Shown piece by piece: positions 1 through 16,847 of a stretch of DNA of 64,000 nt; positions within the stretch are counted from its first letter, which is position 1, and each line of letters starts with the position of its first letter. The stretch is from the NCBI GenBank assembly GCA_964450435.1, contig CAYVCX010000002.1, forward strand, positions 43,760-107,759, read 5' to 3'. The notes under the pieces were generated by a model that ran no database searches, had not been told where the DNA came from, and was given only the letters and a program-made list of their open reading frames with translations. This stretch comes from an uncultured Anaerolineales bacterium (lineage in GTDB: Bacteria; Chloroflexota; Anaerolineae; B4-G1). Both the position numbers and the translations under genes were made by a program.

Positions 1-779
1 AGAGGCCTGACGATTGGTCGCCGCTGTTGCTGGAGGCCTGGGGTGACGCAATCGACGATCCCGCCCGATGGGCCAGAGCTGCTGAGGAGCATGGAGCCGA
101 TCTGATCGCCCTGCAGCTCAGCCTCGAGGATGCTGATGGGGAGCCAAATACCGCCGAAAAGGCCCGCAACACCGTACGCCGTGTCCTTGAGGGTACCGGG
201 CTGCCCCTGGTGGTGCTCGGCCCCGGGCAGGTAGAGGCCGATCACGAACTGCTCGTCGCTGTGGCCGAGGAGGCTTCGGGCGAGCGGGTTGCCCTTGGTC
301 TGTGCGAGGAGAAGAACTACCGTACCATCGTGGCTGGCGCCATGGCCCACGATCAGCTCGTCATCGCCAGCACCGCTATGGACGTGAATCTGGCCAAGCA
401 GCTTAACATCCTCGTCAGCGACATGGGCCTGTCCATGGACCGGATTCTGATGGACCCGACCTGCGCTGCCGTCGGCTATGGGTTCGAGTACGGCTACTCG
501 GTGATGGAGCGGCTCCGGCTGGCAGCTCTCCAGGGCGACGGCATGACGCAGCTTCCTATGATCGTCCTGGTCGGGCACGAGGCCTGGCGGCAGAAGGAGG
601 CCAAGGTCGGCGAGGACGTGCCCGAGACCTGGGGTAACTGGGAGGAGCGGGCCATCAACTGGGAGACGATGACAGCGGCCAGCCTGGTCGAATCCGCTGC
701 TGACATCCTCGTGCTGCGCCATCCGGAGTCGATGCGGCGCATCCACGCGATGATCGATGAACTGTGGGGCCGGGCGTAG
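1..779 (+). CDS. acsD: Corrinoid iron-sulfur protein small subunit (AcsD/CdhD-like), 5'-truncated at window edge
   Basis: The frame is open from the first base of the window, with no stop before the listed ATG at 27. It lies immediately upstream of acsC in a CFeSP operon. Codon usage is GC3-rich. Confidence 0.6.
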   Translation, partial: RPDDWSPLLLEAWGDAIDDPARWARAAEEHGADLIALQLSLEDADGEPNTAEKARNTVRRVLEGTGLPLVVLGPGQVEADHELLVAVAEEASGERVALGLCEEKNYRTIVAGAMAHDQLVIASTAMDVNLAKQLNILVSDMGLSMDRILMDPTCAAVGYGFEYGYSVMERLRLAALQGDGMTQLPMIVLVGHEAWRQKEAKVGEDVPETWGNWEERAINWETMTAASLVESAADILVLRHPESMRRIHAMIDELWGRA

Positions 780-797
780 GACGTGAAGAGCGATGCG

Positions 798-841
798 TGA
801 TGCACAGATGCGGCTCGCGCCGCCGTGAGACCTGTGCATCA
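798..841 (+). promoter_or_regulatory. Perfect 10-bp inverted repeat (TGATGCACAG ... CTGTGCATCA) with a 24-nt loop, between acsD and acsC
   Basis: Read directly from the sequence. It lies 19 nt after the acsD stop and about 45 nt before the acsC RBS (AAAGGAG at about 871). No T-tract follows. Confidence 0.3.
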
Positions 842-887
842 CGCGTCACCTCCCACGCGATCTGCTTAAAAGGAGAATAGGAACACG

Positions 888-2234
888 ATGGCACTTTCGG
901 GCATTCAGATTTACAAACTCTTACCTCAAACCAACTGCCAGGACTGCGACTATCCAACCTGCCTGGCTTTTGCCATGAAGTTGGCTTCTAAGCAGGCGGA
1001 TCTGGCCGACTGCCCTCACGTCTCAGACGAGGCGCGGGAAGAGCTGGCCGAGTCGGCCGCCCCGCCGGTTCGCCTGGTGAGCGTATCCTCCGATGGGCGT
1101 AAGGTCGAGGTCGGCAACGAATTGGTCCTCTTCCGACACGAGAAACGGTTCTTCAACCCGCCTGGGATCTTCGTTCGCGTCTACGATGATCAACCACTGG
1201 ATGAGATCAGGGAGCGCACGGACGAGGCTATGTCGTACCAGGTGGAATACGTCGGCATGGACTTGGAGCTTGACGGCATGGCCGTCCAGGGGACCGGCGA
1301 CGGGGACAGCTTTGCCGAGGCCGTGGGCGCGGTTCTGGAGACGGCTCAGGTGCCTCTCATACTGATCGCCGATGACGCTGCCGTGATGGCCAAGGGCGTC
1401 GAGGCTGCCCAGGAGGCGCGGCCGTTGGTCTGCGGCGCCACGGCAGAGAACTGGGAACCATTTGCCGATCTCGCCGGGGAGCACGAGCTCCCCATGGCGG
1501 TCCAGGCCGGGACGATGACTGCCCTGGCAGAGCTCACCCAGAACGTCCAGGATGCGGGGATCCAGGATATTGTGCTCGATCCCGCGGTGCGGGATATGCA
1601 TTCGTCGTTGGTGCTGAATACGCTGATTCGCCGCAAGGCGATTGACGAGACGTTCCGCCCGCTCGGTTTCCCCATCATCAATTTCCCGGGGGAGATGGCT
1701 GAGGATCCTGGGCTGGTCACCATTGCGGCGAGTCAGGCGGTTGCCAAGTATGGTGGTTTCGTCGTGCTCGATGACTTCAGCCCGGAGACAGCCTACCCTT
1801 TGTTGGTCCTCCGGACGAACGTCTATACCGACCCGCAGGAGCCCATCCAGGTCGAGCCCGGGGTCTATGAGCTCAACGACCCGGGCCCGGATTCGCCGTT
1901 GATGGTGACCACCAACTTCTCCATCACCTACTTCTCGGTGGCCAATGAGGTGGACGGAAGCGGGGTCCCGTCCTGGCTGCTGGTGGCTGCAGCAGAGGGT
2001 ATGAGCGTTCTCACCGCGTGGGCCGCGGGCGAGTTCGACGCCGAGCGTATCGCCAAGGCTGTCCAAACGACGAACATGGCGGACAAGGTCGAGCACCGCA
2101 AGCTCATCATCCCCGGCCACGTGGCTGTGCTCCTTGGCGAGCTGGAGGAGGAGCTTCCGGGCTGGGAGATCCTGGTCGGGCCCCGCGAGGCGGTGGACCT
2201 GCCTGGCTTCTTGAAGCTCTGGAGTCCCGAGTAG
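888..2234 (+). CDS. acsC: Corrinoid iron-sulfur protein large subunit (AcsC/CdhE): N-terminal 4Fe-4S domain, TIM barrel, C-terminal B12-binding region
   Basis: The N-terminal motif CQDCDYPTC is typical of CFeSP gamma / AcsC. The 448 aa length fits. A strong RBS (AAAGGAGAA) precedes it. The context is acsD-acsC-RACo-cooC-acsE. Confidence 0.85.
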   Translation: MALSGIQIYKLLPQTNCQDCDYPTCLAFAMKLASKQADLADCPHVSDEAREELAESAAPPVRLVSVSSDGRKVEVGNELVLFRHEKRFFNPPGIFVRVYDDQPLDEIRERTDEAMSYQVEYVGMDLELDGMAVQGTGDGDSFAEAVGAVLETAQVPLILIADDAAVMAKGVEAAQEARPLVCGATAENWEPFADLAGEHELPMAVQAGTMTALAELTQNVQDAGIQDIVLDPAVRDMHSSLVLNTLIRRKAIDETFRPLGFPIINFPGEMAEDPGLVTIAASQAVAKYGGFVVLDDFSPETAYPLLVLRTNVYTDPQEPIQVEPGVYELNDPGPDSPLMVTTNFSITYFSVANEVDGSGVPSWLLVAAAEGMSVLTAWAAGEFDAERIAKAVQTTNMADKVEHRKLIIPGHVAVLLGELEEELPGWEILVGPREAVDLPGFLKLWSPE

Positions 2235-2317
2235 CGTCATTTCGACAGATGCGGTGGTTGGCAGATTGGCGGGCCGCCGCCAGTCTGCCGGCCGGCCCCG
2301 TCCCCTGAGATCCTGAT

Positions 2318-4237
2318 ATGCCAGCTTGCCGGATCAAATTCCTCCCCACCGAGCGAGAGGTGGACGTCCCCAGCGGTACGCTGCTGAGCGAGGCGGCTCA
2401 GGCAGCCGGTGTGGACATCAATATGCCCTGCGGCGGGCAGGGCCGTTGCGGTCGCTGCGCCGTCATCATCGAATCAGGAGCCGTGCGGCGCCTCTCCACC
2501 GGCGGGCTGTCCCCTGATGACGTGGCCGCAGGCTACGCCCTCGCCTGTCAGACCGCTGTCGAGGAAGACCTGGTCGTCAGCGTGCCGCGTCAGGAGAAGA
2601 TCGAGCGGCGCCTGAAGACGAGTAAGCGCGCTGAGAAGGTCGAGCTGCCGTTTGCCTACAGCGTCGACGACCAGCCGCTGCACAAGTACGTCGTGACGCT
2701 GGATCCCCCCAGTCTTCAGGATCAGACCGACGACTGGTCCCGTCTTCAGCGCGAGCTGTCGCGGCGCTACGACCTGGATGATGTACGGGTCTCCTTGCCG
2801 GTGCTGCGCAAGCTGGGCCGGGCTCTGCGCGAGGGCGATTGGACCGTGACCGTGGTAGCGGAGTTGGATACCCGGCGGCGCCCTGATGGACCACCCCGGA
2901 TGATCGATGTGCTGCCCGGCGAACGCCTGGAGAGCCTCTGGGCGGTGGCCATGGACATTGGCACTACGAGCAACGTGGTGTGGCTGGTCGATCTGATCAG
3001 CGGCGAGGTGATGGCTCAGGCGGCCGACTACAACGGGCAGATCGCTCGCGGAGAGGATGTCATCTCGCGCATTATCTACGCTTCCAAGAACGAGAATGGT
3101 CTGGAGGAGCTGCAGCGGCTGGTTCTCGACACCTTCAACGGACTGCTCCGACAGGTGGCCGAGGAGCGCGGCATCAGCACCGACGAGATTTACAAGGCTG
3201 TCGTGGCCGGTAACAGCACCATGCTGCATCTCTTTGCCGGTATCCCTCCCGAGACCATTCGCCTGATGCCCTTCATCACCGTGGTCAATCAACTGCCTGC
3301 GTTCGAGGCCCGTGAGACCGGGCTAGGAATCAACCCGGCGGCGACCGTCGATTGCCTGCCTGGTGTGGCTTCCTACGTTGGGGCGGACATCACGGCCGGC
3401 GTGGTGAGCTCCGGGATGTGCGAGGAGGAGACCGATCTGACGCTGTTTGTGGACGTGGGGACCAATGGCGAGATGGTGCTGGGCGATTGCACCTGGCTCA
3501 TCGCCTGTGCTTGCTCGGCCGGGCCGGCCTTCGAGGGCGCCGGCGTCGTCGACGGCATGCGCGCCACGGCCGGGGCCATCGAGGAGGTCTGGGTGGACCG
3601 CACGAGCTACGAGGCTCAGTATCGCGTCATCGGCGATGAGCGGCCCCGGGGAATCTGTGGTTCCGGGCTGATATCGCTGATGGCGGAGATGTTTATGGCC
3701 GGCGTGATCGACAAGAGCGCCAACATCAGCCTTGAGTTGGGCACCAACAGGGTCCGGGAGGGCGAACACGGGGCTGAGTACGTCGTCGCCTGGAAGGATG
3801 AGACGGAGACTGATCGAGACATCGTGATTACCGACGTCGATCTCAATAACCTCCTGCGGGCCAAGGCGGCTATCTACGCCGGTTTCTCGATCCTGGCTCG
3901 CAGCGTCGGGCTGAGCCTGGATGCCGTCGAGCGCGTGCTCATCGGAGGGGCTTTTGGGCAGTACATCAACGTCGAAAAGGCGGTGCAGATTGGCCTGCTG
4001 CCCGATATGCCCTACGACAGCTTTCATTTCCTGGGCAATACGTCGGTGCGCGGGGCCTACATGACGCTCATCTCTCGAGAGAAGCGCGAGCAGGTGGCTC
4101 AAGTTGGCGAGATGATGACCTACCTCGAGCTGTCGGCTGACAACACGTTCTTCGACGAGTTCAATGCGGCCCTATTCCTGCCACATACGGATATCAGCAA
4201 GTTTCCATCTATGGCCGAGGCGTTGGAGGCAAAGTGA
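2318..4237 (+). CDS. Reductive activator of corrinoid enzymes (RACo): 2Fe-2S ferredoxin domain plus ASKHA ATPase domain
   Basis: The N-terminal plant-type 2Fe-2S motif (CGGQGRCGRC ... C) is followed by a long actin/ASKHA-like ATPase region of about 640 aa. It sits adjacent to acsC as in acetogens. Confidence 0.75.
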   Translation: MPACRIKFLPTEREVDVPSGTLLSEAAQAAGVDINMPCGGQGRCGRCAVIIESGAVRRLSTGGLSPDDVAAGYALACQTAVEEDLVVSVPRQEKIERRLKTSKRAEKVELPFAYSVDDQPLHKYVVTLDPPSLQDQTDDWSRLQRELSRRYDLDDVRVSLPVLRKLGRALREGDWTVTVVAELDTRRRPDGPPRMIDVLPGERLESLWAVAMDIGTTSNVVWLVDLISGEVMAQAADYNGQIARGEDVISRIIYASKNENGLEELQRLVLDTFNGLLRQVAEERGISTDEIYKAVVAGNSTMLHLFAGIPPETIRLMPFITVVNQLPAFEARETGLGINPAATVDCLPGVASYVGADITAGVVSSGMCEEETDLTLFVDVGTNGEMVLGDCTWLIACACSAGPAFEGAGVVDGMRATAGAIEEVWVDRTSYEAQYRVIGDERPRGICGSGLISLMAEMFMAGVIDKSANISLELGTNRVREGEHGAEYVVAWKDETETDRDIVITDVDLNNLLRAKAAIYAGFSILARSVGLSLDAVERVLIGGAFGQYINVEKAVQIGLLPDMPYDSFHFLGNTSVRGAYMTLISREKREQVAQVGEMMTYLELSADNTFFDEFNAALFLPHTDISKFPSMAEALEAK

Positions 4238-4404
4238 ATCCCAGACGCAGCGCGGAGAGGGCGAGAGAATGGGGGAATCAGACTGAGCTCGAGTCGGCGC
4301 GTCGCTGTGTTCGGACAGTGCCTGGTGGGCTCAGGGATTCGGTGTGACCCACCCGACCAGCGGTGGTCCGGGACACGTATAAGAAGATATTGGACAGAGA
4401 GAAC

Positions 4405-5214
4405 ATGACGACGACAATTGCCCTGGCTGGCAAGGGGGGAACTGGAAAGACCACCGTCGCCGCGCTTCTGGTGCGCTACCTGGTGGAGGAGCGAGACGGC
4501 GCTATCCTCGCCATCGACGCCGATCCTGCCAGCAATCTTCACTTCGTCCTGGGGATGGAGCTGCATCAAACCATCGGCGAGATTCGGGAGGACATGCTCG
4601 ATCAGGTCCAGACCAGCGGGGCGCTGGCCGGGGCGATGCCCGGCGGGATGAGCAAGCAGGAGTACCTGGACTATCAGGTCCAGATGTCCCTCGTCGAGGG
4701 TGACCGGGTTGACCTCCTGGCCATGGGGCGGCCCGAGGGCCAGGGGTGCTATTGCGCCGCGAATCAGATGCTTCGGCTGATCCTCGATCGGCTCAAGAGT
4801 CATTATGACTACGTGGTGATCGACAACGAGGCGGGCATGGAGCATCTGAGCCGTCGCACGACGCGCGATGTCGACGTGCTCCTGCTGGTGACCGACCCCA
4901 CCCAGCGGGGTCTCATCACGGCGAGGCGGATGCAGGAGATGGTGCCCGAGCTGGAGATCGGTGTTGGTCGCGTATACCTCATCGTCAATCGACTGCGGAG
5001 CGACGGGCGCGAACAGGCGGAGGCTGTACCCCGCCCCCTGGTCAGGGTCATTGAGGAGGCGGAGCTCGATCTCATCGGCACGGTGCCCGAGGAGCCGGCG
5101 ATGGCCGAGTTCGAGTTCACCGGACGGCCGCTGGTGGAGTTGCCCGCAGAGACCGGCCTCTATCAGGCCGTCCGGGAGATCGCTGGGGAGATCCTCGGCA
5201 ACGGGCGGCGCTGA
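4405..5214 (+). CDS. cooC: CooC/AcsF-type nickel-insertion ATPase (MinD/ParA family)
   Basis: Walker A motif GKGGTGKTT at the N-terminus. The listed ORF starts at 4363, but the ATG at 4405 (MTTTIALAGKGG) with an upstream GAGAG is the more likely start. Confidence 0.8.
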   Translation: MTTTIALAGKGGTGKTTVAALLVRYLVEERDGAILAIDADPASNLHFVLGMELHQTIGEIREDMLDQVQTSGALAGAMPGGMSKQEYLDYQVQMSLVEGDRVDLLAMGRPEGQGCYCAANQMLRLILDRLKSHYDYVVIDNEAGMEHLSRRTTRDVDVLLLVTDPTQRGLITARRMQEMVPELEIGVGRVYLIVNRLRSDGREQAEAVPRPLVRVIEEAELDLIGTVPEEPAMAEFEFTGRPLVELPAETGLYQAVREIAGEILGNGRR

Positions 5215-5282
5215 TCCTCGCCGCAAGGGTGTTGTGGCGCCGCTATTGATGAAACGCAATCCACGAAAGAGGAGGAATAGCG

Positions 5283-6206
5283 ATGTACATCATTGGTGAG
5301 AACATCCACATCGTCTCGCCCAGCGTGGCTCGAGCTGTCGAGGAGCGGGATGCAAAGTTCTTCCAGGACATGGCGGTGCGTCAGGTGGAGGCCGGCGCCA
5401 GCGCCGTGGACCTGAACATGGGCCCTCAGAAGAGAGAGGGCGAGGAAATCCTGCCCTGGTTGGTGGAGACCGTCGAGGAGGTCGTGGACGTGCCGTTGGT
5501 CTTCGATACCACGAACCTCGGCGCCATCGAGGCAGCCTGCAAAGTGGTTTCCAAGGCACAGCCCATCATCAACTCGGTCTCCGCGAAGGAGGAGTCCCTG
5601 GAGAAGGTGCCCCTGGTCGCCGCAGAGTACAACACGCGCCTGATCGGACTTACCATGGAATCGGGTATGATCCCCGTCAGTGCCGACGAGCGGGTCACCA
5701 TCGCCATCGAGAAGCTGATCCCCCGTATGCTGGAGGTCGGCCTCCCCATAGAGGACTTCATCATCGATCCCCTGGTCCTTACCGTCTCCGGGTGCCAGGA
5801 GTACTGCCCTGAGTTCCTCGATGCGGTCCATATGCTCAAGTTCGCCTGGGATCCAGCCCCCAAGACGAACGCGGGACTGTCCAACGTCTCTAACGCGGTG
5901 CCATCCGAGATGCGCCCCTTGCTCAACCGGGTCTATCAGGTGATGATTATGGGAGCTGGTGTCGACATGGTCATCGCTGACCCCTTTGATGAGGACCTGT
6001 TGGAGTTCATCCGCATCGTCGAGGAGCGGGATGACTCCACGCCTCTGAGTCAATCTCTCCTGAAGCTCCACGATCGCATCGCGGCGATGGAAGAACCGCA
6101 GGCGGATGACTTCGACCTCGACGACCCGGAGCAGGAGGCGGTCTGGAAGACGGTCCAGGTGCTGCAGAACGAGATCATCTACACCGATTCGTATCTGCGC
6201 GTGTAG
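5283..6206 (+). CDS. acsE: Methyltetrahydrofolate:corrinoid/iron-sulfur protein methyltransferase (AcsE, pterin-binding DHPS-like barrel)
   Basis: The N-terminus MYIIGENIH followed by a pterin-binding fold is characteristic of AcsE/MtrH-like methyltransferases. It is adjacent to the CFeSP genes. Confidence 0.8.
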   Translation: MYIIGENIHIVSPSVARAVEERDAKFFQDMAVRQVEAGASAVDLNMGPQKREGEEILPWLVETVEEVVDVPLVFDTTNLGAIEAACKVVSKAQPIINSVSAKEESLEKVPLVAAEYNTRLIGLTMESGMIPVSADERVTIAIEKLIPRMLEVGLPIEDFIIDPLVLTVSGCQEYCPEFLDAVHMLKFAWDPAPKTNAGLSNVSNAVPSEMRPLLNRVYQVMIMGAGVDMVIADPFDEDLLEFIRIVEERDDSTPLSQSLLKLHDRIAAMEEPQADDFDLDDPEQEAVWKTVQVLQNEIIYTDSYLRV

Positions 6207-6335
6207 CCTGGAAGTCGAGGAGGGCACTCTAGGAGGATTGACCGGACCTACTGATTCTGGATCCCACAGGATCGCCCGGTGGGTCCGCAGAGCCCTCTGG
6301 ACGTTGATTCAGCGACGTTTCACACGGGAGGACGT

Positions 6336-7223
6336 ATGACTGCACAATTGCTGGACGGCAGAGCGACATCGGCCAAAATCCGTGAGGAAGTCCAAGCCGC
6401 GGTCGAGCAGTTGAAGGCCGAGCACGACGTGGTGCCCGGCCTGGCCACGGTGCTCGTGGGGGAGAACCCGGCTTCACAGACGTATGTCAGCATGAAGGAG
6501 AGACAGTGCGAACGAGCCGGGATGCGTGCCTTTGGTCAGCACCTGCCCGACGACATCGACCAGGCAGGTCTGATGGCCGAGATAGCGAAACTAAACGCCG
6601 ACCCGCAGGTCCACGGCATCCTGGTGCAGCTCCCTCTGCCCGATCATCTCGATGAAGATGAGACGTTGGCCGCCGTCTCGTTGGAGAAAGACGTGGATGG
6701 CTTCCACCCCGTCAACATCGCGCGCCTGACGCTCCAGAACGTGGAGCCCACCTTCGCGCCGTGCATGCCGCTCGGCTGCCTTGAGCTCCTCCACAGATAC
6801 GGGGTGGACATCAGAGGTAAGGAAGCCGTGGTCCTCGGCCCGACCAACATCGTGGGGCTGCCCACCGCCATGCTGCTGCTGCACGAGGGGGCGATGGTCG
6901 ACATTTGCCATCCCCACACTCCGGATCTGCCAGGTATCAGCAGACGCGCGGACATCCTGGTCGCTGCCATCGACGATCCCGGGATGGTGAAGGGCGATTG
7001 GGTCAGGCCGGGGGCTGCCGTGATCGATGTCGGATGGAGCCGGGTGAAAGATGCGACGGCCGAGAAGGGCTATCGAGTGATTGGAAACGTAGATTTTGAC
7101 GAGGTCAAGGGCGTCGCCGGCTACGTCACGCCGGTGCCGGGAGGCACGGGACCTATGACCATCGCCATGCTGCTACAGAACACGTTGCTGGCGGCCAGGC
7201 GTGCCGCCGGCATCTCCGGCTGA
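6336..7223 (+). CDS. folD: Bifunctional 5,10-methylene-THF dehydrogenase / methenyl-THF cyclohydrolase (FolD)
   Basis: Conserved FolD motifs are present, including LVQLPLP and GFHP. A GGGAGGA RBS precedes the ATG at 6336; the listed ORF at 6279 has an unlikely 19-aa leader. Confidence 0.85.
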   Translation: MTAQLLDGRATSAKIREEVQAAVEQLKAEHDVVPGLATVLVGENPASQTYVSMKERQCERAGMRAFGQHLPDDIDQAGLMAEIAKLNADPQVHGILVQLPLPDHLDEDETLAAVSLEKDVDGFHPVNIARLTLQNVEPTFAPCMPLGCLELLHRYGVDIRGKEAVVLGPTNIVGLPTAMLLLHEGAMVDICHPHTPDLPGISRRADILVAAIDDPGMVKGDWVRPGAAVIDVGWSRVKDATAEKGYRVIGNVDFDEVKGVAGYVTPVPGGTGPMTIAMLLQNTLLAARRAAGISG

Positions 7224-7329
7224 GACGCGTGCCAGGCAAGGCCCGACGAGATTGGAGGGGCTTCTCGTCCCATCCACCCGGTTGATGCGGATGGGAAGGG
7301 CAGCAACGAGACCGGGCTGTGGAGGTTCT

Positions 7330-7734
7330 ATGAGAGCCGAGCTATCGGCAGAGAGAATACGTGGGCGTTTCGTGCAGCTGGTTGAGGAGATCAGCGGTCA
7401 GGATCTCCTGGCCTGCAACCAGTGCGGCAAGTGCAGCGCTGGATGCCCCATTGTAGGCACGATGGACATCCTGCCCAGCCAGGCCATCCGAATGGCGCAG
7501 TTGGGTATGGAGGACGTGCTGGAGACGACCACCATATGGATCTGCGCTTCCTGCCTGACGTGTGTCGCGCGCTGTCCCAAGGGGGTCGATCTGCCCCGAC
7601 TGATGGAGGCCCTGCGCCAGACTGCATTGCGCAAAGGGGTCGCGAAGTTGGATCTAAACGCTCTCCCTCAGGAGCTGTTGCGCGAGCTGCCTCAGCTGGC
7701 GATCATCGGGGGATGCAGGAAGTACATAAAGTAA
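7330..7734 (+). CDS. hdrC: Heterodisulfide reductase subunit C-like (2x[4Fe-4S] ferredoxin)
   Basis: Two CxxCxxCxxxCP motifs (CNQCGKCSAGCP and CASCLTCVARCP). A GGAGG RBS precedes the ATG at 7330. It is followed by hdrB. Confidence 0.75.
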   Translation: MRAELSAERIRGRFVQLVEEISGQDLLACNQCGKCSAGCPIVGTMDILPSQAIRMAQLGMEDVLETTTIWICASCLTCVARCPKGVDLPRLMEALRQTALRKGVAKLDLNALPQELLRELPQLAIIGGCRKYIK

Positions 7735-7795
7735 ACCTGTGTGTCTGGTGGTCAATCGGTAAACATATGTGGCCGCAAAATCTTGGAGCTAGTTA

Positions 7796-8662
7796 ATGGG
7801 CATTCCCTACTTTCCAGGCTGTACGCTTTCGACCAAGGCGAAGAACTACGACCGCTCGGGCAGAGCGGTAGCGAAAGCGCTGGGGTTGGAGCTTGAGGAG
7901 CTTCCCGAGTGGCAGTGCTGTGGAGCCACGTTCCCGCTTATGCTCGACGACTCGATGGCTCTCATCGCACCCACGCGCATCCTGTATCAGGCTCAGCAGG
8001 CCGGTGAGCGTGTGACCACTCTCTGCTCTGTGTGTTTCAACGTGCTGCGCCGCTCCCAGGCACTGCTGGGGCGCGACGAGGAGATGCTGGATCGCATCAA
8101 TTGGTTCACGGAGCAGGAGTATCACGGCGACGTAGTTGTGTCGCATTTTCTCGAGGTGCTTCGCGACGATCTGGGCTGGGACGAGGAGCCCGGTTCTCTG
8201 GCCGAACACGTGAGACGGCCCCTGACGGGGTTGAAGGCTGCTCCCTACTACGGCTGCCTTCTCCTGCGTCCATACGACGAGATCGGCCTCGACAATCCGG
8301 AGGACCCGCGCATTCTTCACGACCTCTTGCGGGCCCTCGGCGCCGAGCCGGTGGACTTCCCGTTCAACATCGAGTGTTGCGGCTCCTATCTGATGGTCAA
8401 GGATCCCGATGTCCCGGAGTCGCTCTCCACGGAAATCGTCGCTTCGGCCAGAGAACACGGCGCCGATGTGGTGGTCACTGCCTGTCCGCTCTGTCAGTTC
8501 AATCTCGACTACCCACAGCGGGAGACGGTGGGCAGTCGTGCGGGGAGCCGGATCCCCGTGGTCTACTTCACGCAGCTAATGGCAGTAGCTCTGGGGCTGC
8601 CGGAGGAGACGTGGGGGTTTGAAGACCATTACGTGGACCCGAAACCACTGTTTGACGAGTAG
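7796..8662 (+). CDS. hdrB: Heterodisulfide reductase subunit B-like (two CCG cysteine-rich domains)
   Basis: CCG domain signatures are present (CCG..., CPLCQ) and the N-terminus YFPGC is typical of HdrB. Confidence 0.8.
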   Translation: MGIPYFPGCTLSTKAKNYDRSGRAVAKALGLELEELPEWQCCGATFPLMLDDSMALIAPTRILYQAQQAGERVTTLCSVCFNVLRRSQALLGRDEEMLDRINWFTEQEYHGDVVVSHFLEVLRDDLGWDEEPGSLAEHVRRPLTGLKAAPYYGCLLLRPYDEIGLDNPEDPRILHDLLRALGAEPVDFPFNIECCGSYLMVKDPDVPESLSTEIVASAREHGADVVVTACPLCQFNLDYPQRETVGSRAGSRIPVVYFTQLMAVALGLPEETWGFEDHYVDPKPLFDE

Positions 8663-8719
8663 AGGGGGCCGGTAGAAGCGGGTGAGTTGGTGCGGTTGGC
8701 GGGTTCAGGGAGGAAGAAA

Positions 8720-9292
8720 ATGTCCGATGTTTGGAAGCGGTTGGAGAACTACCGAAAATTGAAGGTGTTGCCCTCTGGTGAGAGGCTCCTGTTGCGTCCC
8801 TTGACGAAGCAGGATAAGCAGGACCTCGTGGCCCTCTTTGGTCGCGCCGCCGAGCAAGACCTGCAGTACTTCCGGAGCGATGCCGGTGATCCGGAGGTGG
8901 TGAAGAGTTGGGTGGACAAACTGGATCTGCAGCGCGTCTTTCCTCTGGTGGCTGTCGTGGACGACACGATAGTGGGGGAGGCGATGCTGCACTTCGGGGA
9001 GCACTTCCATCGTCACCTGGCCTGGGTGCGCATCTTCCTGGACCGGGACTACCGGCGACAGGGTATCGGCACGCTCATGCTGCGCTGCTTGATCGAGGTC
9101 GCGCGCCGGGTCGGGCTGCAGCAGTTGTACGCCGAGGTTGTGCTGACCCAGCCCCAGGTGATCAAGGCCTTCGAGAACCTCGGTTTCCGCCACGAGGTGA
9201 CGTTGGAGGACTACTTCATCACCGATAGCGGGGAGACCCTCGACATGGCTATTCTGGTGTACTGGCTCGTCGACAGCTCCGGGGTGTTCTGA
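8720..9292 (+). CDS. GNAT family N-acetyltransferase
   Basis: Acetyl-CoA binding motif (RRQGIGTLML) within a GNAT fold of about 190 aa. A GGGAGGAAG RBS precedes the ATG at 8720. Confidence 0.7.
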   Translation: MSDVWKRLENYRKLKVLPSGERLLLRPLTKQDKQDLVALFGRAAEQDLQYFRSDAGDPEVVKSWVDKLDLQRVFPLVAVVDDTIVGEAMLHFGEHFHRHLAWVRIFLDRDYRRQGIGTLMLRCLIEVARRVGLQQLYAEVVLTQPQVIKAFENLGFRHEVTLEDYFITDSGETLDMAILVYWLVDSSGVF

Positions 9293-9401
9293 ATCCCATT
9301 GGTCGTCGGCAGTGGCTGTTCCCTGCCACCGCGGCTCTCGATCCTGAGGGGAGATCGCCCTTGCCTGGGATAGCGCCATTAGGATGATTATTATGGTTCA
9401 T

Positions 9402-9430
9402 TTGCTCCGTATGCAGGTGCTCGTTATAAT
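9402..9430 (+). promoter_or_regulatory. Sigma70-like promoter candidate (TTGCTC, 17 nt spacer, TATAAT) upstream of the hdrC/hdrB/hdrA block
   Basis: A perfect -10 hexamer TATAAT at 9425-9430 with a 17-nt spacer to TTGCTC, inside a locally AT-rich island within an otherwise GC-rich 226-bp intergenic region. Confidence 0.35.
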
Positions 9431-9518
9431 TCGTATAGGCTGGTGACTGTTCTGAGCCTCGAGGGGCGCCGCAACGCCCTCACGGCTCGCCAATCGTGAC
9501 ACAACCTATGGAGGAGCC

Positions 9519-10154
9519 ATGGCACTTGGCACTGGGCTCGGGACTCCGAGTCAGGCGCTGACGGTAATAACCGGACTCGCCTTCAGCGACCTTGTGAAGC
9601 AGCAGAGCGGCGAGAATCTCCACGCCTGTTACTACTGCCAGAAGTGTACTGCGGGCTGTCCAACAGCCTTCACGATGGACTACAAGCCCGCCCAACTCCT
9701 GCGCTTGATCCAGTTGGGGCAGAAGGACAGGGTCTTGGGGAGCCGGGCCATCTGGATGTGCATCGGGTGTGAGGCCTGCGGCACCCGCTGTCCCAACGAC
9801 ATACGCCTGGCACCGGTGATGGACGTGCTCCGCCATATGGCGCTCGATGAGGGATACAAGCCCGACACCGCTGTCTACTCCCTCCACCGGGCGTTCCTCG
9901 AAAGCATCCGCAGGTGGGGGCGCATGCACGAGGTCACCATGCTGGCCGAGTTCAAGACCCGCTGCCTCCTGTCCGAGTATTCCGTCTTCTTCGAGGGCCT
10001 GCTGGGGGATATGAAAATGGGCGGTGAGTTGATGTTGAAGGGGAAGCTTTCGTTTCTTCCGGACCGCATCAAGCGCATGGAGGAGATCAAGGCCCTGTAT
10101 GAGGAGGCCACCGATGCGTCGTCCCGTGAGGGTGAGTCGGAGGTGGGCGAGTGA
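9519..10154 (+). CDS. hdrC: Heterodisulfide reductase subunit C
   Basis: Motifs CYYCQKCTAGCP and CIGCEACGTRCP. A GGAGG RBS is present. It overlaps the following hdrB start by 4 nt. Confidence 0.8.
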   Translation: MALGTGLGTPSQALTVITGLAFSDLVKQQSGENLHACYYCQKCTAGCPTAFTMDYKPAQLLRLIQLGQKDRVLGSRAIWMCIGCEACGTRCPNDIRLAPVMDVLRHMALDEGYKPDTAVYSLHRAFLESIRRWGRMHEVTMLAEFKTRCLLSEYSVFFEGLLGDMKMGGELMLKGKLSFLPDRIKRMEEIKALYEEATDASSREGESEVGE

Positions 10155-10999
10155 GATACACGTACTATCCCGGGTGCACGGCTGAGACCACGGCTGTCGA
10201 GTTCGGCCTGTCCACCGAGGCGGTCTGTGAGGCTCTGGGCATGGAGTTGATCGAGATCGATGACTGGAACTGCTGCGGCGCCTCGTCGGCGCACAGCCTG
10301 GACCACGAGCTTGGTCTGTCCCTGCCCGGCCGTAATGTGGCCCTGGCTCAGAAGGCCGGGCTGGACATAGTGATTCCGTGCCCCGCCTGCTACCAGCACT
10401 GCCGCGACGCCGACATCAAGATGCGTGAGGACGAGGCCTGGCGCGCGAAGATGGAGAGGATCCTGGGGTTCCAATACGAGGGCGACGCGCTCCCGCGTCA
10501 CCTGCTGGAGGTCCTCAGCCGAGATTTCGACCGGGAGACCCTCAAAGAGAAAGTCAGCAGGCCCTTGAAAGGTCTCAAGGTAGCTTCCTACTACGGCTGC
10601 GTCCTGGTCCGCCCGCCGGAGCTAACCGGCTGGGACGATCCGGAGCATCCCACGACGATGGACCACCTGATGGCCGCTATCGGAGCCGAGATCGTCGACT
10701 GGTCCTACAAAGTAGATTGCTGCGGTGCGAGCATGACCCTCGCGCGCGGCGACATAGTCGTCGAGCTGTCCACCAAGGTCGTCGAAGGGGCCGTCGAAGC
10801 GGGCGCGGACTGTATTGTCTCCGCTTGCGGAATGTGCGAGATCAACCTTGATACGCGGCAGGCTGGCGAGAAGAAGATGCCTATTTTCTACTTCACCGAA
10901 CTGATGGGCCTCGCACTAGGGCTGCCCGGGATCGACAAGTGGTTGGGCAGACATAGCGTGGATCCCCGACCACTGCTTCGAGAACGAGGGCTTCTTTAG
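10151..10999 (+). CDS. hdrB: Heterodisulfide reductase subunit B
   Basis: N-terminal YYPGC and two CCG domains. It is translationally coupled to hdrC. Confidence 0.8.
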   Translation: MRYTYYPGCTAETTAVEFGLSTEAVCEALGMELIEIDDWNCCGASSAHSLDHELGLSLPGRNVALAQKAGLDIVIPCPACYQHCRDADIKMREDEAWRAKMERILGFQYEGDALPRHLLEVLSRDFDRETLKEKVSRPLKGLKVASYYGCVLVRPPELTGWDDPEHPTTMDHLMAAIGAEIVDWSYKVDCCGASMTLARGDIVVELSTKVVEGAVEAGADCIVSACGMCEINLDTRQAGEKKMPIFYFTELMGLALGLPGIDKWLGRHSVDPRPLLRERGLL

Positions 11000-11023
11000 A
11001 GAGGGCAACACGCGAGAGGACTT

Positions 11024-14000
11024 ATGAGCGACAACAACGGATCTCTCAGGACTGAAGCAAAGTCTGCCGGAAGCGACGCCGTCCTGGTTGTCGGTGCCGG
11101 CATTGGTGGTATGCAGTCAGCCTTGCTTCTCGCTGAAACCGGACACCAGGTCTACCTGCTGGATAGCTCTCCCGGCATCGGGGGCTCGATGCATCTGCTG
11201 GACCGCACGTTCCCCACCGATTCGTGCGGCATTTGCCTGATGCTGCCGGGACGGGCGGCGTATTGCCCCACCATCGAGTGTGATCTTCACGCAAACATCC
11301 AGATTCTTGCTTATGCCGAGGTAGAAGATGTGGCGGGCGAGGCCGGGAGTTTCACGGTCACGGTGCGCCGCAAACCGCGCTACGTGGACGTTGAGCTGTG
11401 TAACAACTGTGGTCTCTGTGCTGAGGTCTGTCCCGCGGACCTTCCCCACCAGTACGAAGGAACTGTGGCACCGCAGAAGGCGATCTACCAGCCGCCCATC
11501 CGCGCCATTCCGTCCACCTACGTCATCGACATGGATTACTGCACCCGCTGCGGCGAGTGCGTCGCGGTGTGCCCCATTGAGGCTGTCGACCTGGAGATGG
11601 CCGAGACCCAGGAGCAGATCCAGGTGGCGGCCGTGGTGATGAGCCCGGGCTACGAGCCCTTCGACGCGGGCGTCAAGGGGGAGTACGGTTTCGGGCACTA
11701 CGACAATGTTCTATCGAGCATCCAATTTGAGCGCATGATCAGCATCTCTGGCTCCACCGGGGCGGATATCGTGCGGCCATCCGATGGTGAGTCGCCGCAG
11801 CGGGTCGCTTTCATCCAGTGCGTCGGGTCCCGGGATTCCTCTATTGATCGCGGCTACTGTTCCTCAGTCTGCTGCATGTACACCGCCAAGCAGGTGCAGG
11901 TCGCCAAGAGGCTCGATCCCGACCTCGATGTGACGGTCTTCTTCATGGACATCCGTGCCCACGGCAAGGACTTCGACGAGTATTTTGATCAGGTGGAGGC
12001 GATGCCGGGCGTGAACTATCGCCGTGCGATGGTCTCCTCGGTCCACGAATACAAGCAGACGGGCGACCTGCAGCTCAACTTCGTCGGAGAGGACGGGACG
12101 GTCCGTGAGGAGGATTTCGACATGGTAGTGCTCTCGGTGGGCTTCGAGCCTCCCCAGGGCTTCCGGGATCTGGGCCAGGCCTTGAACGTCGATTTGAACC
12201 GCCACGGCTTTGGCCAGTCGGACACGTTCCATCCCGGTGAAAGCTCGCAGCCGGGCATCTTCGTCAGTGGCGCTTTCCGGGAGCCCAAGGACATCCCGGA
12301 GACCGTCGTCGAGGCCTCGGCCGTCGCAGCCAGCGCTGCTCGCCTCCTGGAGCAGGTCCGGGTTCCCTCTGGCGTGCCGGCGAAACCTGTGCCCAGCGTT
12401 GACACTCAGCCCGAGGAGCGGGACGTCAGCCGCGAATGGCCCCGCGTGGGCGTCTTCCTGTGCGACTGCCGGGGAGAGGTTGGCTCGGTGGTCGACCTGC
12501 AGGATGTCTCCGAGTACGCGGGGGGCCTCCAGGACGTGGCCCTGGTACAGGCCATGGATAATGCCTGCCTGTTGAGCGGCCGCGAGCAGATTCTCCAGGC
12601 GATCGAGGAGGCCGAGCTCAATCGTGTGGTGATCGCGGGTTGCCCTGCCCGGGAGTATCAATCGGTCTTCGAGGATCTGATGCGTGGTGCGGGTCTGAAT
12701 CCTGCCTTGATGGAGCGAGTCAATCTCCGCGGCGAGATAGCCTGGGTTCATCAGGGGAATGGGACGCACGCTACTGCCAAGGCCAAAGAGCTGGTCCACA
12801 TGGCCGTCGCCGGCGTCCGGATGGACCAGCCGATCTACTTCGAAGATCAGGAACTCTCGCAGCGAGCCTTGGTAGTCGGCGGGGGGCTGGCCGGAATGAC
12901 GGCTGCCCGTAGCTTGGCGCAGATGGGCCACGAGGTGGACCTGGTGGAGGCCTCAAGTGAGCTCGGCGGACAACTGAACGAGCTGCGCTATCTGCCCACC
13001 GGGGAGGATCCTGTGGCATTCACCACCTCGCTCATCGAGGCGGTGGAGAGCGCCAGCCAAATTCACATCTACCGCGACGCTCAGATCGACGGGGTCTCCG
13101 GCTGCGTCGGGCAGTATCAGACGAACCTGGCCCTGGCCGATGGAGACCGCGAGACGCTGCGCCACGGCGTGCTCATCGTGGCCACCGGCGGGCAAGAGGT
13201 TGTTCCGACCGAGTATTTGTACGGAGAGAGCCCCCAGGTGGTCACCCAGCGAGAGCTCGAGAAGCTGCTGGAGGCAGATGGGGATGTACCCTCCGATGTG
13301 GTGATGATTCAGTGTGTCGGCTCGCGAGAGCCTGAACGTCCCTACTGCAGCCGCATCTGTTGCACCAAAGCCGTCTCCAATGCGCTCCGCATCAAGGAGC
13401 GCAATCCGGATGCGCGGGTGTTCGTGCTCTACCGGGAGATGCGTACCTACGGTTTCCGCGAGGACTACTACCGGGAGGCGCGCGAGAAGGGCGTGATCTT
13501 CCTCCGCTATGAGCTGCCCGACAAACCCCGGGTCGCGGCGGGTGACGGGCAGTTGAGCGTCCGGCTTCGGGAGCCGGTCACCGGCGAACAGGTGGACCTG
13601 CAAGCCGACATGCTTGTGTTGAGCACGGGGATCGATCCCCATGACGTGGGCGACCTTGCTCGCATGCTCGATGTGTCGCTGGACAAGAACGGGTTCTTCC
13701 AGGAGGAATACCCCAAGATGCGGCCCCTCGATTTCACGAAGCGGGGTATCTTTATGTGCGGACTGGCGCACTCGCCGCGATTCCTGGACGAGACCATCGT
13801 GCAAGCGCAGGGCGCGGCCATGCGTGCCGCTGCGTTGCTCCAACAGCAGACGTTGCAGGCCCCGGTGCCTCCGGTCCTGGTGAATGAGCGCCTGTGCACC
13901 GCATGCGGCCAATGTGTCGAGATCTGTCCCTACGGGGCCCGCGTGCTCGAGGCCGGGGCCCATACGGCCGAGGTGATCGAGGTGCTGTGTCAGGGTTGCG

Positions 14001-14092
14001 GTGCCTGTGTTGTTGCCTGCCCGAACAAGGCCACGCGGCGGCAGGGCGCCGAGATTTCCAGCGTGTATCGCATGCTGGAGTCAGTCGCATAG
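11024..14092 (+). CDS. hdrA: Tandem HdrA-like flavoprotein (1022 aa). N-terminal half is an FAD domain with the Cys-rich motif; C-terminal half has an N-terminal Cys-rich Fe-S domain, an FAD-like domain with a degenerate motif, and a C-terminal 2x[4Fe-4S]
   Basis: GxGxxG motifs at residues about 23 and about 616. Motif DRTFPTDSCGICLMLP in the first half versus LNELRYLPTGED in the second. Motif VFLCDCRGEVG marks the N-terminal Fe-S domain, and ferredoxin motifs lie at the C-terminus. Confidence 0.8.
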   Translation: MSDNNGSLRTEAKSAGSDAVLVVGAGIGGMQSALLLAETGHQVYLLDSSPGIGGSMHLLDRTFPTDSCGICLMLPGRAAYCPTIECDLHANIQILAYAEVEDVAGEAGSFTVTVRRKPRYVDVELCNNCGLCAEVCPADLPHQYEGTVAPQKAIYQPPIRAIPSTYVIDMDYCTRCGECVAVCPIEAVDLEMAETQEQIQVAAVVMSPGYEPFDAGVKGEYGFGHYDNVLSSIQFERMISISGSTGADIVRPSDGESPQRVAFIQCVGSRDSSIDRGYCSSVCCMYTAKQVQVAKRLDPDLDVTVFFMDIRAHGKDFDEYFDQVEAMPGVNYRRAMVSSVHEYKQTGDLQLNFVGEDGTVREEDFDMVVLSVGFEPPQGFRDLGQALNVDLNRHGFGQSDTFHPGESSQPGIFVSGAFREPKDIPETVVEASAVAASAARLLEQVRVPSGVPAKPVPSVDTQPEERDVSREWPRVGVFLCDCRGEVGSVVDLQDVSEYAGGLQDVALVQAMDNACLLSGREQILQAIEEAELNRVVIAGCPAREYQSVFEDLMRGAGLNPALMERVNLRGEIAWVHQGNGTHATAKAKELVHMAVAGVRMDQPIYFEDQELSQRALVVGGGLAGMTAARSLAQMGHEVDLVEASSELGGQLNELRYLPTGEDPVAFTTSLIEAVESASQIHIYRDAQIDGVSGCVGQYQTNLALADGDRETLRHGVLIVATGGQEVVPTEYLYGESPQVVTQRELEKLLEADGDVPSDVVMIQCVGSREPERPYCSRICCTKAVSNALRIKERNPDARVFVLYREMRTYGFREDYYREAREKGVIFLRYELPDKPRVAAGDGQLSVRLREPVTGEQVDLQADMLVLSTGIDPHDVGDLARMLDVSLDKNGFFQEEYPKMRPLDFTKRGIFMCGLAHSPRFLDETIVQAQGAAMRAAALLQQQTLQAPVPPVLVNERLCTACGQCVEICPYGARVLEAGAHTAEVIEVLCQGCGACVVACPNKATRRQGAEISSVYRMLESVA

Positions 14093-14139: not shown

Positions 14140-15465
14140 GTGGGCAAAGGTGAACCAGGGGCGGTGGTGATTGGTGCTGGCATTGCTGGCATCCAGGCTG
14201 CGCTCGACATCGCGGATGCGGGCTTTCACGTGTATCTCGTGGAGCGCGAACCATCTGTCGGCGGGCGCATGGCTCAGCTAGACAAGACGTTTCCGACCCT
14301 GGACTGCTCTTCGTGCATCCTGACGCCCAAGATGGTCGACGTGGGCCAGCATCCCAACATCGAGCTGATGACCTATTCGGAGGTGGCGTCGGTCGAGAAG
14401 GATGATGGGGTCTTCCACGTGCGAGTGCGCAAGAAGCCCCGGTACGTGGACGTCGATCTGTGCCGTGGGTGTGGTGACTGCGCTGAAGCCTGTCGTCTCA
14501 AAGGGCGCGTTTCGAGCAACTTCGATGCGGGTATCGCCAACAGGTCGGCTATTTACGTACCTTTCCCTCAAGCAGTCCCGCTGAAGTACACCATCGACCC
14601 GGAGGCGTGCCTCTATCTGACCCGCGGGGTCTGTGGACGTACGTTCAAGTGCAAGGACGCCTGTCCAGCCGAGGCCATCGATTTCGAGCAGGAAGAGGAG
14701 TTCGTGGACGTCGATGTGAGGACCATCGTTGTGGCCACGGGGTTCGATATCATCGAGCCGGAGACCAAGCCGGAATACGCCTACGGTGTCTATCCCCAGG
14801 TGATGACGGGCATCGAGTTTGAGCGGCTTTCTGATGCCTCGGGGCCCACAAGAGGACAGATTCTGATCGATGGAAAGAAGCCGAAAGATGTCGTGTTCAT
14901 CAAGTGCGTCGGCTCCCGAGACCCGCATACGGGAGTCCCCTACTGCTCTCGAGTCTGCTGTATGTATACGGCGAAACACGCTCATCTGGTGCGAGAAAAG
15001 GTGCCCGAAGCGAACATCACCGTCTTCTATATGGACGTGCGCGCTTTCGGTAAGGGATACGAGGAGTTCTACGATCGTGTGAAGCACGAACGAGTCAACT
15101 ACCGGCGCGGAGAACCCTCCGAGGTCTATCGACGCGGCGACAAGCTGGTTGTGCTGGCCGAGGATACCAGTCTGGGAGAGGTCGTTGAGGTCGAGGCCGA
15201 TCTGGTGGTCCTGGCAACGGCCATTGTGCCACGAACGGACATACAGGATGTCGCCGAGGTGTTGGGCTTGGAGCGGTCTGCGGATGGGTTCTTCCAGGAG
15301 TCGGACACGAAGCTGCGTCCGGTCGACACGAATGTGGAGAACGTCTTTGTGGCCGGCTGTTGCCAGAGCCCCAAGGATATCCCGGATACAGTCGCACAGG
15401 CGAAAGCCGCGGCTTCTTGCGCGTTGAGGGTGTTGGTCCGAGCCAGGGAAGCCGTGCCCGCTTAG
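14140..15465 (+). CDS. hdrA: HdrA-like FAD protein, short form (N-half type, 441 aa) with intact DKTFPTLDCSSCIL motif
   Basis: The GAGIAGIQAA FAD fold, the FPTLDCSSCIL motif and an internal ferredoxin motif are all present. Confidence 0.8.
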   Translation: MGKGEPGAVVIGAGIAGIQAALDIADAGFHVYLVEREPSVGGRMAQLDKTFPTLDCSSCILTPKMVDVGQHPNIELMTYSEVASVEKDDGVFHVRVRKKPRYVDVDLCRGCGDCAEACRLKGRVSSNFDAGIANRSAIYVPFPQAVPLKYTIDPEACLYLTRGVCGRTFKCKDACPAEAIDFEQEEEFVDVDVRTIVVATGFDIIEPETKPEYAYGVYPQVMTGIEFERLSDASGPTRGQILIDGKKPKDVVFIKCVGSRDPHTGVPYCSRVCCMYTAKHAHLVREKVPEANITVFYMDVRAFGKGYEEFYDRVKHERVNYRRGEPSEVYRRGDKLVVLAEDTSLGEVVEVEADLVVLATAIVPRTDIQDVAEVLGLERSADGFFQESDTKLRPVDTNVENVFVAGCCQSPKDIPDTVAQAKAAASCALRVLVRAREAVPA

Positions 15466-15598
15466 CCCTCCAACCGCGCTTGTCATTCTAGGGAGTGTGG
15501 CAGGTGCAGCGGGGTGACGGCGAAGAATCTCCCTGATGTTGGATTGACTTTTCCAGCGATGCGGGGCTGTGAGCGGTAGGGTGGTAGAGGAGAACGAG

Positions 15599-16774: not shown

Positions 16775-16847
16775 GCGGCGAGGCGCCCGGGCGACTACCC
16801 GCCCAGGGGCCCGCGCGCTCGTGCTCCTGGCTTGAGTGGGTGACATT

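Follow-up and report, generated by a model that had tools for sequence, protein, structure and literature searches.

Downstream part of a probably complete Wood-Ljungdahl gene cluster, beginning inside a probable acsB-acsD fusion gene, in an uncultured Anaerolineales bacterium

The stretch of DNA analysed here (the window) comprises 64 kb from an uncultured Anaerolineales bacterium (Chloroflexota), and the feature under study occupies its positions 1-7223. An earlier note had listed the genes acsD-acsC-acsV/RACo-cooC-acsE-folD, followed by hdrC-hdrB; family and PDB matches confirm these genes and their order, all on the plus strand. The first 14 kb read as follows:

1..779, plus strand: 3' part of acsD, CoFeSP small-subunit domain (Pfam CdhD, NF003376, PDB 4djd_D)
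888-2234, plus strand: acsC, CoFeSP large subunit with FeS domain and CdhD-type barrel (NF003195, 545.6 bits, cutoff 306; Pfam FeS and CdhD)
2318-4237, plus strand: acsV/RACo, ATP-dependent reductive activator of the corrinoid protein (Pfam Fer2, RACo_linker, Raco_middle and RACo_C_ter)
4363-5214, probable start ATG 4405, plus strand: CooC/AcsF-type Ni-insertion ATPase (P-loop GKGGTGKT, CYC motif)
5283-6206, plus strand: acsE, methyl-H4folate:CoFeSP methyltransferase (Pfam Pterin_bind; NF005719, 208 bits, under the cutoff of 259)
Open from 6279, likely start ATG 6336, end 7223, plus strand: folD, methylene-H4F dehydrogenase/methenyl-H4F cyclohydrolase (Pfam THF_DHG_CYH and THF_DHG_CYH_C)
Open from 7201, likely start ATG 7330, end 7734, plus strand: hdrC-like subunit with two [4Fe-4S] clusters (Fer4_8; TIGR03290, E 4.9e-17, below cutoff)
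7796-8662, plus strand: hdrB-like subunit with two CCG domains (Pfam CCG twice; TIGR03288, E 3.8e-46)
8720-9292, plus strand: GNAT acetyltransferase (Pfam Acetyltransf_1)
9519-14092, plus strand: another hdrC-hdrB pair, followed in the list by a double HdrA-like protein of 1022 aa

The window start cuts acsD, and approximately 57 residues of the domain are missing. Although truncated, the domain scored 306 bits against NF003376 (cutoff 280; profile positions 58-312 of 313), and in the PDB it matched 4djd_D, the small subunit of CFeSP (E 8.5e-93). AcsV contains each of the four RACo Pfam domains and reached 657 bits with the AcsV family NF040756 (cutoff 800). AcsE showed a full-length match to the Moorella MeTr 2e7f (E 3e-53, residues 1-259), and FolD, with the ribosome-binding site GGGAGG before ATG 6336, scored 368 bits with NF010785, under the cutoff of 396. 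Scores below the NCBIfam curated cutoffs, as obtained for AcsV, AcsE, FolD and HdrB/C, are expected in a divergent phylum. The two CooC maturases counted in the earlier note are both present, each with a P-loop, a CxC motif and CooC1 (3kje) as best PDB match (E 7.6e-21 for the first), and the ATPase gene between acsV and acsE is kept in the closest relatives. Of the components that characterize a bacterial acs cluster, the window holds AcsC together with AcsD, AcsE, and RACo/AcsV with a CooC/AcsF-type ATPase. For hdrC, ATG 7330 is preceded by GGAGG at 9 nt and gives a product of 134 aa, the same length as in a related locus with 82% AcsD identity (L002); with this start instead of 7201, folD is followed by a 106-nt gap rather than by an overlap. 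HdrB matched the methanogen HdrB 8rvu (E 8e-46), and the GNAT acetyltransferase recurs beside acs genes, with tblastn matches in the related loci L005, L009, L010 and L018. Six large minus-strand ORFs over the region had no Pfam match and were treated as high-GC shadow ORFs. Promoter-like and terminator-like sites between 1 and 12000 were not in excess over the shuffled expectation, and an Rfam scan of the whole window returned nothing at gathering scores, neither a cobalamin nor a THF riboswitch.

Across the window, metVF occurs as two pairs, MvhD domains number three, and HdrA-like genes are numerous. The genes further downstream that are relevant to the argument are:

15569-16774: TfrB-like, in the same gene run as hdrC-hdrB
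20969-22576: TfrA-like, in the same gene run
22592-25801, plus strand: double HdrA (1069 aa), upstream of metVF
25794-26252, plus strand: MvhD, upstream of metVF
Within 22592-30845, plus strand: GltD/NfnB-like and HdrA fusion (1501 aa), upstream of metVF
31848-33527, plus strand: metV1-metF1 (Pfam DUF5981, the MTHFR C-terminal family, and MTHFR)
33537-34958, plus strand: fused HdrC-HdrB as a single 473-aa protein (NCBIfam HdrC and HdrB matches)
35668-37184, plus strand: metV2-metF2
Within 35668-38000, plus strand: second CooC (CooC1 3kje, E 2.2e-42; CIC motif)
55644-57963: NiFe hydrogenase subunits

Fumarase and 2-oxoacid oxidoreductase genes also occur in the run that holds the Tfr-like genes.

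The earlier note had further emphasized the absence of acsA and acsB. This is literally true within the 64 kb, where neither gene was found among the scanned ORFs, but as a statement on the biology of the organism it most likely reflects only the position at which the window starts. A 2.7-kb Logan contig of the same organism (L001), which is identical to the window over the overlap and encodes the same AcsC, extends the window 305 nt leftward. The acsD frame remains open through these 305 nt, into an Ala/Glu/Pro-rich linker, and the extension lacks any Met codon as a start, its only in-frame GTG having no visible ribosome-binding site. In each of the 69 related loci having an AcsA match, acsA-acsB lie directly 5' of acsD on the same strand, in the order acsA-acsB-acsD-acsC-acsV. 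The closest relatives carry fhs further 5' and have acsE-folD-hdrC-hdrB in common; in L002, a 667-aa Prismane/CODH gene, with fhs further upstream, precedes a 1262-aa ORF made up of CODH_A_N, CdhC, ACS_CODH_B_C and CdhD. Because the L001 extension has the character of a fusion-type linker and acsA-acsB stand upstream in all 69 loci, we regard the lack of both genes as a probable artefact of the window edge. Judged from the L001 frame and the relatives, acsA and acsB are very probably located immediately to the left of position 1. An acsA-acsB pair immediately upstream, the finding that according to the earlier note would make the arrangement ordinary, is thus what the relatives have, and we infer it with considerable assurance for this organism.

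It is very likely that positions 1-7223 are the 3' portion of a complete Wood-Ljungdahl cluster whose genes all run in one direction, in the full order (fhs ...) acsA, acsB::acsD, acsC, acsV, cooC, acsE, folD, and that the window starts inside the AcsD domain. The stretch would correspond to the downstream two-thirds of an ordinary and probably complete acetyl-CoA cluster from an undescribed Anaerolineales species. Against this reading stands that searches did not recover the organism's DNA upstream of L001: AcsC led to the 2.7-kb contig alone, the metagenome collection contained no exact match to a 35-mer taken from the first letters of the window, the best genome match was 82% identical among the matches listed, and the best matches in a set of 5.8 billion proteins were at most 84% identical. 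The separate acsB and acsD genes of 11 among 75 relatives also count against it. The joining of acs and hdr genes as such is of little consequence and adds one further case of the strong clustering of acs, folD, hdr, mvhD and metVF in Anaerolineae. Judging from the protein families, FolD would supply methylene-H4F, which MetVF would reduce to methyl-H4F, and AcsE would hand the methyl group to Co(I) in the corrinoid protein formed by AcsC and AcsD. The methylated carrier would then deliver it to the A-cluster of AcsB, which would join methyl, CO from AcsA and CoA, while AcsV would re-reduce inactive Co(II) at the expense of ATP and the CooC-type ATPases would serve nickel loading. A methylene-H4F reductase complex of the Moorella type (type IV), which may bifurcate electrons, is most likely encoded among the downstream Hdr, MvhD and MetVF genes. 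This type, expected to form a hexamer with NADH-dependent and possibly bifurcating activity, is described as MetVF-HdrCBA-MvhD (PMC8760232), and the corresponding genes are found here as adjacent metV-metF with HdrA, HdrB, HdrC and MvhD flanking metV1-metF1. The best candidate for such a complex would be the module at 22.6-35 kb adjoining metVF, rather than the hdrC-hdrB pair beside folD.

Three other readings have to be weighed against this one. Positions 1-7223 might represent a stand-alone corrinoid and methyl-branch module wired directly to Hdr, with the CODH/ACS genes located elsewhere or missing, and both the lack of acsA and acsB among the scanned ORFs and the existence of incomplete Wood-Ljungdahl pathways in Dehalococcoidia speak in its favor. 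However, the window edge cuts through acsD, the open frame leads on the 5' side into a linker of the fusion type, all 69 related loci with an AcsA match place acsA-acsB at this very position, and two CooC nickel insertases would be left without a client if CODH/ACS were missing, which makes a stand-alone module highly improbable. The second alternative concerns the hdrC-hdrB pair alone, which may belong to another Hdr-type complex (e.g., one linked to an Mvh hydrogenase or a Tfr-like complex reducing disulfide or fumarate) instead of a methylene-H4F reductase, its position merely following from the general clustering of anaerobic redox genes. The pair at 7330-8662 encodes bona fide HdrC and HdrB homologues; it lies 24 kb from metVF, which has nearer Hdr sets and its own fused HdrC-HdrB, MvhD and HdrA neighbors. 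The Tfr-like, fumarase and 2-oxoacid oxidoreductase genes in the same run and the NiFe hydrogenase subunits point in the same direction, as does the rarity of the arrangement: of 57 Anaerolineae loci whose sequence 3' of acsE could be read, only 8 have acsE-folD-hdrC-hdrB, others having metVF or hdrA-mvhD there instead. Eight close relatives show acsE-folD-hdrC-hdrB, and L005 additionally has GNAT-hdrC2-hdrB2. In the relatives, HdrA-like genes and not metVF come after hdrC-hdrB. On the other side, folD-hdrC-hdrB is kept across a clade of 70-82% AcsD identity, and in M. thermoacetica hdrCBA and mvhD adjoin metVF within the large acs cluster (PMC6085454). We consider a separate complex to be a serious possibility, although not the one we favor.

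The third alternative is that the cluster operates mainly in the oxidative direction, by acetyl-CoA cleavage and methyl oxidation (e.g., in syntrophic oxidation of acetate or organic acids), with Hdr modules that confurcate rather than bifurcate. In principle all enzymes could run either way, a 2-oxoacid oxidoreductase, fumarase and hydrogenase are likewise encoded in the window, and Anaerolineae have been considered candidate syntrophic acetate oxidizers (bioRxiv 10.1101/2021.07.06.451242), whereas Sewell et al. (PMC5736913) favor a homoacetogenic role for related marine Chloroflexi. The sequence itself gives no indication of direction, acetogenic or acetyl-CoA-oxidizing, and a mainly oxidative role appears rather unlikely to us, yet deserves mention. 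Within the reading of a complete cluster, the suggestion of the earlier note that the methyl branch is coupled to Hdr-type bifurcation is plausible in view of the two metV-metF pairs and their Hdr and MvhD neighbors. The coupling could not be attached to the genes on which it had been based: the sequence does not tie the hdrC-hdrB pair by folD to methylene-THF reduction, and the pair is not assignable to the reductase because the same run is interspersed with genes for TfrA/TfrB-like proteins, fumarase and a 2-oxoacid oxidoreductase.

The proximity of acs and hdr genes had also been taken as a departure from Moorella. This view has to be abandoned, as hdrCBA-mvhD-metVF are part of the acs cluster in Moorella itself, and linkages like the one seen here are on record for both Moorella and marine Chloroflexi. 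Both the Moorella cluster (PMC6085454, PMC8760232) and the present one, the latter with acsA and acsB expected just outside the window, combine acsA, acsB, acsC, acsD, acsE and a CooC-type gene with hdrC, hdrB, hdrA, mvhD, metV and metF in one co-directional cluster. The present cluster differs by several Hdr paralogue sets, by two metVF pairs and by the distance of about 24 kb from the first hdrC-hdrB pair to metVF. Further differences are the position of acsD ahead of acsC, its probable fusion to acsB, and the location of acsV and folD inside the cluster. Marine Anaerolineae-type Chloroflexi have hdr-mvhD-metVF clusters in which metVF is present as two sets (Sewell et al. 2017, PMC5736913). 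The organisms concerned, DscP3 and An-B22, belong to the same phylum and share with the window two non-identical metV/metF sets and a translational HdrC-HdrB fusion adjoining metF, with MvhD and HdrA alongside. The window organism, in contrast, has acs, folD and hdr/metVF in a single run of about 38 kb, a joining of acs and hdr that is not described in the available part of that paper.

The most unusual item is the widespread fusion of AcsB to AcsD through a disordered linker. In 64 of 75 related Anaerolineae loci both are encoded as a single protein of 1200-1380 aa, while acsB and acsD are separate genes in the other 11. The additional residues encoded by L001 align with the AcsB-AcsD linker, including the motif RPxxxPWSExKE, which is missing in relatives whose acsB and acsD are separate; on these grounds, the acsD of the window probably encodes the C-terminal domain of an AcsB-AcsD fusion protein. 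The window itself holds only the AcsD end of this probable gene. In the fusion proteins, the Ala/Glu/Pro-rich linker measures 119-281 aa and is predicted to be disordered with one conserved helix, as judged from an AlphaFold2 model of a partial fusion protein whose mean pLDDT of 58.8 denotes low overall confidence. No description of an AcsB-AcsD fusion was found in our literature search. We tentatively propose, with somewhat less than even confidence, that in most Anaerolineae, very probably including this organism, AcsB is covalently fused to AcsD via a disordered linker with a conserved amphipathic helix, that this linker would keep the methyl carrier permanently attached to CODH/ACS, in a manner comparable to the archaeal ACDS supercomplex but bacterial and covalent, and that the arrangement is apparently undescribed. 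A natural fusion in dozens of species may be of interest for the mechanism of CODH/ACS, as a ready-made tethered system for the shuttling of the corrinoid protein between methyltransferase and A-cluster and as a comparison point for the disordered-tail tethers of ACDS.

In the archaeal ACDS, the corrinoid protein is kept beside ACS by disordered parts of CdhC and CdhD, among them an oligomerizing helix, and the disordered AcsB-AcsD linker of Anaerolineae with its one conserved helix would likewise tether it, in this case covalently. The likeness of the helices is one of character, and homology of the linker helix to the archaeal CdhD coiled-coil segment was considered but set aside. An archaeal-type ACDS identity (two-domain CdhC without an N-terminal domain for CODH binding, together with a CdhA/CdhB-type CODH) was ruled out by the relatives, whose ACS part is a bacterial AcsB of three domains, the N-terminal one being the CODH-binding CODH_A_N, and whose CODH is of the single-subunit AcsA type (667 aa, Prismane family), as befits a bacterial-type enzyme.

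The gene list and order read earlier from the start of the window, acsD-acsC-RACo-cooC-acsE-folD followed by hdrC and hdrB, were borne out far beyond chance by Pfam, NCBIfam and PDB matches. All real genes of window 1-12000, named here with Pfam and NCBIfam, lie on the + strand.

Genes at the window start
ends at 779, +, AcsD domain (PDB 4djd_D, CFeSP small subunit, E 8.5e-93)
888-2234, +, acsC
2318-4237, +, acsV/RACo
4363-5214, +, MinD/ParA-class ATPase, CooC-type (P-loop, CxC motif, best PDB match CooC1, 3kje)
5283-6206, +, acsE (Moorella MeTr 2e7f, E 3e-53)
6279-7223, +, folD (probable start ATG 6336)
between folD and hdrB, +, HdrC-like protein (likeliest start ATG 7330)
7796-8662, +, hdrB (methanogen HdrB 8rvu, E 8e-46)
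8720-9292, +, GNAT acetyltransferase
downstream of the GNAT gene, +, second hdrC-hdrB pair, then a 1022-aa double HdrA

Since the AcsD profile is matched from position 58 to 312 of 313, the window start falls inside acsD. The most likely hdrC start is preceded by GGAGG, leaves a 106-nt gap from the folD stop and gives a product of 134 aa, the same as in L002, a related Anaerolineae locus; neighbouring genes from acsD through hdrB are separated by about 60-170 nt. In 1-12000, sites resembling promoters or terminators were not more frequent than in shuffled sequence, six large minus-strand ORFs over the acs-hdr region had no Pfam match, and Rfam gave no match at gathering scores in the whole window. 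Four related loci (L005, L009, L010 and L018) likewise have a GNAT acetyltransferase gene immediately adjacent to acs, folD or hdr genes, and the product of this gene could have a putative role as an acetyl-CoA-sensing protein acetylase.

The absence of acsA and acsB, which the earlier note had considered notable, is very probably an artefact of the window edge. An exact look-up of the AcsC protein returned a single 2732-bp Logan contig (L001, from SRR7048218), by which the window was extended 305 nt upstream. The acsD frame remains open to the end of L001, through AAPPTEEIAEPEAEEKKEEAPPEPRRPRPEVAPWSEEKETEVEIPREKW, and the added stretch contains no Met codon and a sole in-frame GTG without a visible ribosome-binding site; the match to solved AcsD starts only at residue 42 of the L001 translation. 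DNA of the window organism reaching further left than L001 was not recovered. Scanning one genome per species with the L001 AcsD protein gave at least 80 matching loci, all in Anaerolineae/Chloroflexota MAGs, with a best identity of 82% among the matches listed. In L002, a 667-aa Prismane/CODH gene, with fhs further upstream, precedes a 1262-aa ORF composed of CODH_A_N, CdhC, ACS_CODH_B_C and CdhD. Among the matches listed, tblastn maps gave the order acsA-acsB-acsD-acsC-acsV-(cooC)-acsE in 69 of 69 loci with an AcsA match, so that acsAB lie immediately upstream in the same operon in every readable relative. The residues added by L001 align with the linker of fused AcsB-AcsD proteins and share its conserved RPxxxPWSExKE motif, which is missing where acsB and acsD are separate genes. 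Together, the open acsD frame, the linker alignment and the acsA-acsB order of the relatives strongly indicate that acsAB are located immediately upstream in the same operon in the window organism as well, the very arrangement that the earlier note had named as making its observation ordinary.

Among the matches listed, 75 loci were informative: in 64 of them acsB and acsD are read as one open frame of 1200-1380 codons, and in the other 11 as two genes. The fusion occurs at L002 7232-11020 and in 63 other loci among these matches, corresponding to at least 64 species-level genomes, and in 16 independent metagenome proteins; window 1-779, continued in L001 1-1084, is probably the AcsD end of such a fusion. 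The linker spans 119-281 aa, half of them Ala, Glu or Pro. A small search recovered a conserved element of about 30 residues, VQQIAQxSAxIVxxSFRRALEAALxELGG, from 53 of the 64 linkers with E below 1e-3. A low-confidence AlphaFold2 model (mean pLDDT 58.8) predicts a disordered linker except for one helix, which coincides with this element. No description of the fusion was found in the literature searched, though an earlier one is possible, and the accessible part of a 2026 preprint on disordered tethers of archaeal ACDS (PMC13370988) does not mention it.

The position of hdr genes beside acs genes is not new. Among the matches listed, acsE-folD-hdrC-hdrB is common to the eight closest relatives, with GNAT-hdrC2-hdrB2 additionally shared by L005, and in 57 Anaerolineae loci readable for 3.5-5.7 kb past acsE, metV-metF followed in 19, Hdr-like genes in 12 and folD in nine; one locus (L046) has the order acsE-hdrAA-mvhD-metV-metF. 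By gene order, the acs-hdr/metVF theme is common across Anaerolineae, and joining folD exactly to hdrCB is characteristic of a single clade. The large acs cluster of M. thermoacetica has hdrCBA and mvhD next to metVF (PMC6085454), the type IV reductase is defined as MetVF-HdrCBA-MvhD (PMC8760232), and marine Anaerolineae-type Chloroflexi contain hdr-mvhD-metVF clusters in which HdrC and HdrB are fused and metVF occurs in two differing sets (PMC5736913). The association is already covered by the literature, and the finding is an ordinary one: a very probable window-edge artefact together with an established gene neighbourhood, in a cluster of known kind.

The co-directional + run goes on past the 1022-aa double HdrA.

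Downstream Hdr, MvhD and metVF genes
14140-15465, +, HdrA core
15569-16774, +, TfrB-like protein
16836-18602, +, HdrA-like protein
20969-22576, +, TfrA-like flavoprotein
22592-25801, +, double HdrA
25794-26252, +, MvhD
26340-30845, +, 1501-aa GltD-like + HdrA fusion
31848-33527, +, metV1-metF1
33537-34958, +, fused HdrC-HdrB, 473 aa
between fused HdrC-HdrB and metV2, +, CBS-domain protein
35668-37184, +, metV2-metF2
37221-38000, +, second CooC (P-loop, CxC motif, best PDB match CooC1, 3kje)
past the 2-oxoacid:acceptor oxidoreductase, +, further HdrA/MvhD/HdrD-like genes

The 1501-aa protein, encoded just upstream of metV1, combines a GltD/NfnB-like part that binds NAD(P)H (Fer4_20 and Pyr_redox_2) with an HdrA-like part and is presumably similar to HdrL of sulfate reducers. 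The two different metV-metF pairs at 31848-37184, split by the fused HdrC-HdrB and the CBS protein, match the arrangement described for DscP3, a single-cell genome from marine Chloroflexi. The proposed coupling of the methyl branch to Hdr is partly supported, by the Hdr/MvhD genes flanking metVF; the best candidate for a Moorella-type reductase would be the metV1F1 module and not the folD-adjacent hdrCB.

Judged from the protein families, FolD and MetVF would produce methyl-H4F, from which AcsE would methylate Co(I) in AcsC/AcsD, and this corrinoid protein would then methylate the A-cluster of AcsB, which would join the methyl group with CO from AcsA and with CoA. AcsV would rescue Co(II) at the cost of ATP, and the CooC-type ATPases would insert nickel. 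The Hdr/MvhD modules probably link methylene-H4F reduction, an exergonic step, to reducing a low-potential acceptor, or catalyze the reverse reaction.

The Hdr and metVF genes are interspersed with those for the TfrB-like and TfrA-like proteins, which are of the thiol:fumarate reductase type, for a class I fumarase encoded by two genes (39988-41522, +) and for a 2-oxoacid:acceptor oxidoreductase (42208-45022, +). This gene content may point to redox chemistry of fumarate and oxoacids within the run, and the Hdr-like genes here therefore need not all serve the methyl branch. Two further genes have no evident pathway link: one for a C39-like peptidase (37997-38755, +), which overlaps the 3' end of the second cooC, and, near the right end of the window, one for an AbiEi-type antitoxin-like protein (62465-63298, +).

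Between 54000 and 62000, G+C climbs to 0.67-0.69 and GC skew becomes negative; an aminotransferase is present, and several long ORFs on both strands had no Pfam match.

Genes in the right-hand part
55644-57963, +, NiFe hydrogenase small and large subunits
59736-60956, +, MFS transporter

A gene of about 870 codons (51406-54015, +) for an HdrA-MvhD fusion carries a single in-frame TGA at 52018-52020, which falls in TMDCSI*ILGPK, the conserved Cys/Sec site of HdrA. A hairpin, GGAUGUC-GGUC-GACAUCC, whose fold z-score is only -1.5, begins about 22 nt further on, and the TGA is probably a selenocysteine codon.
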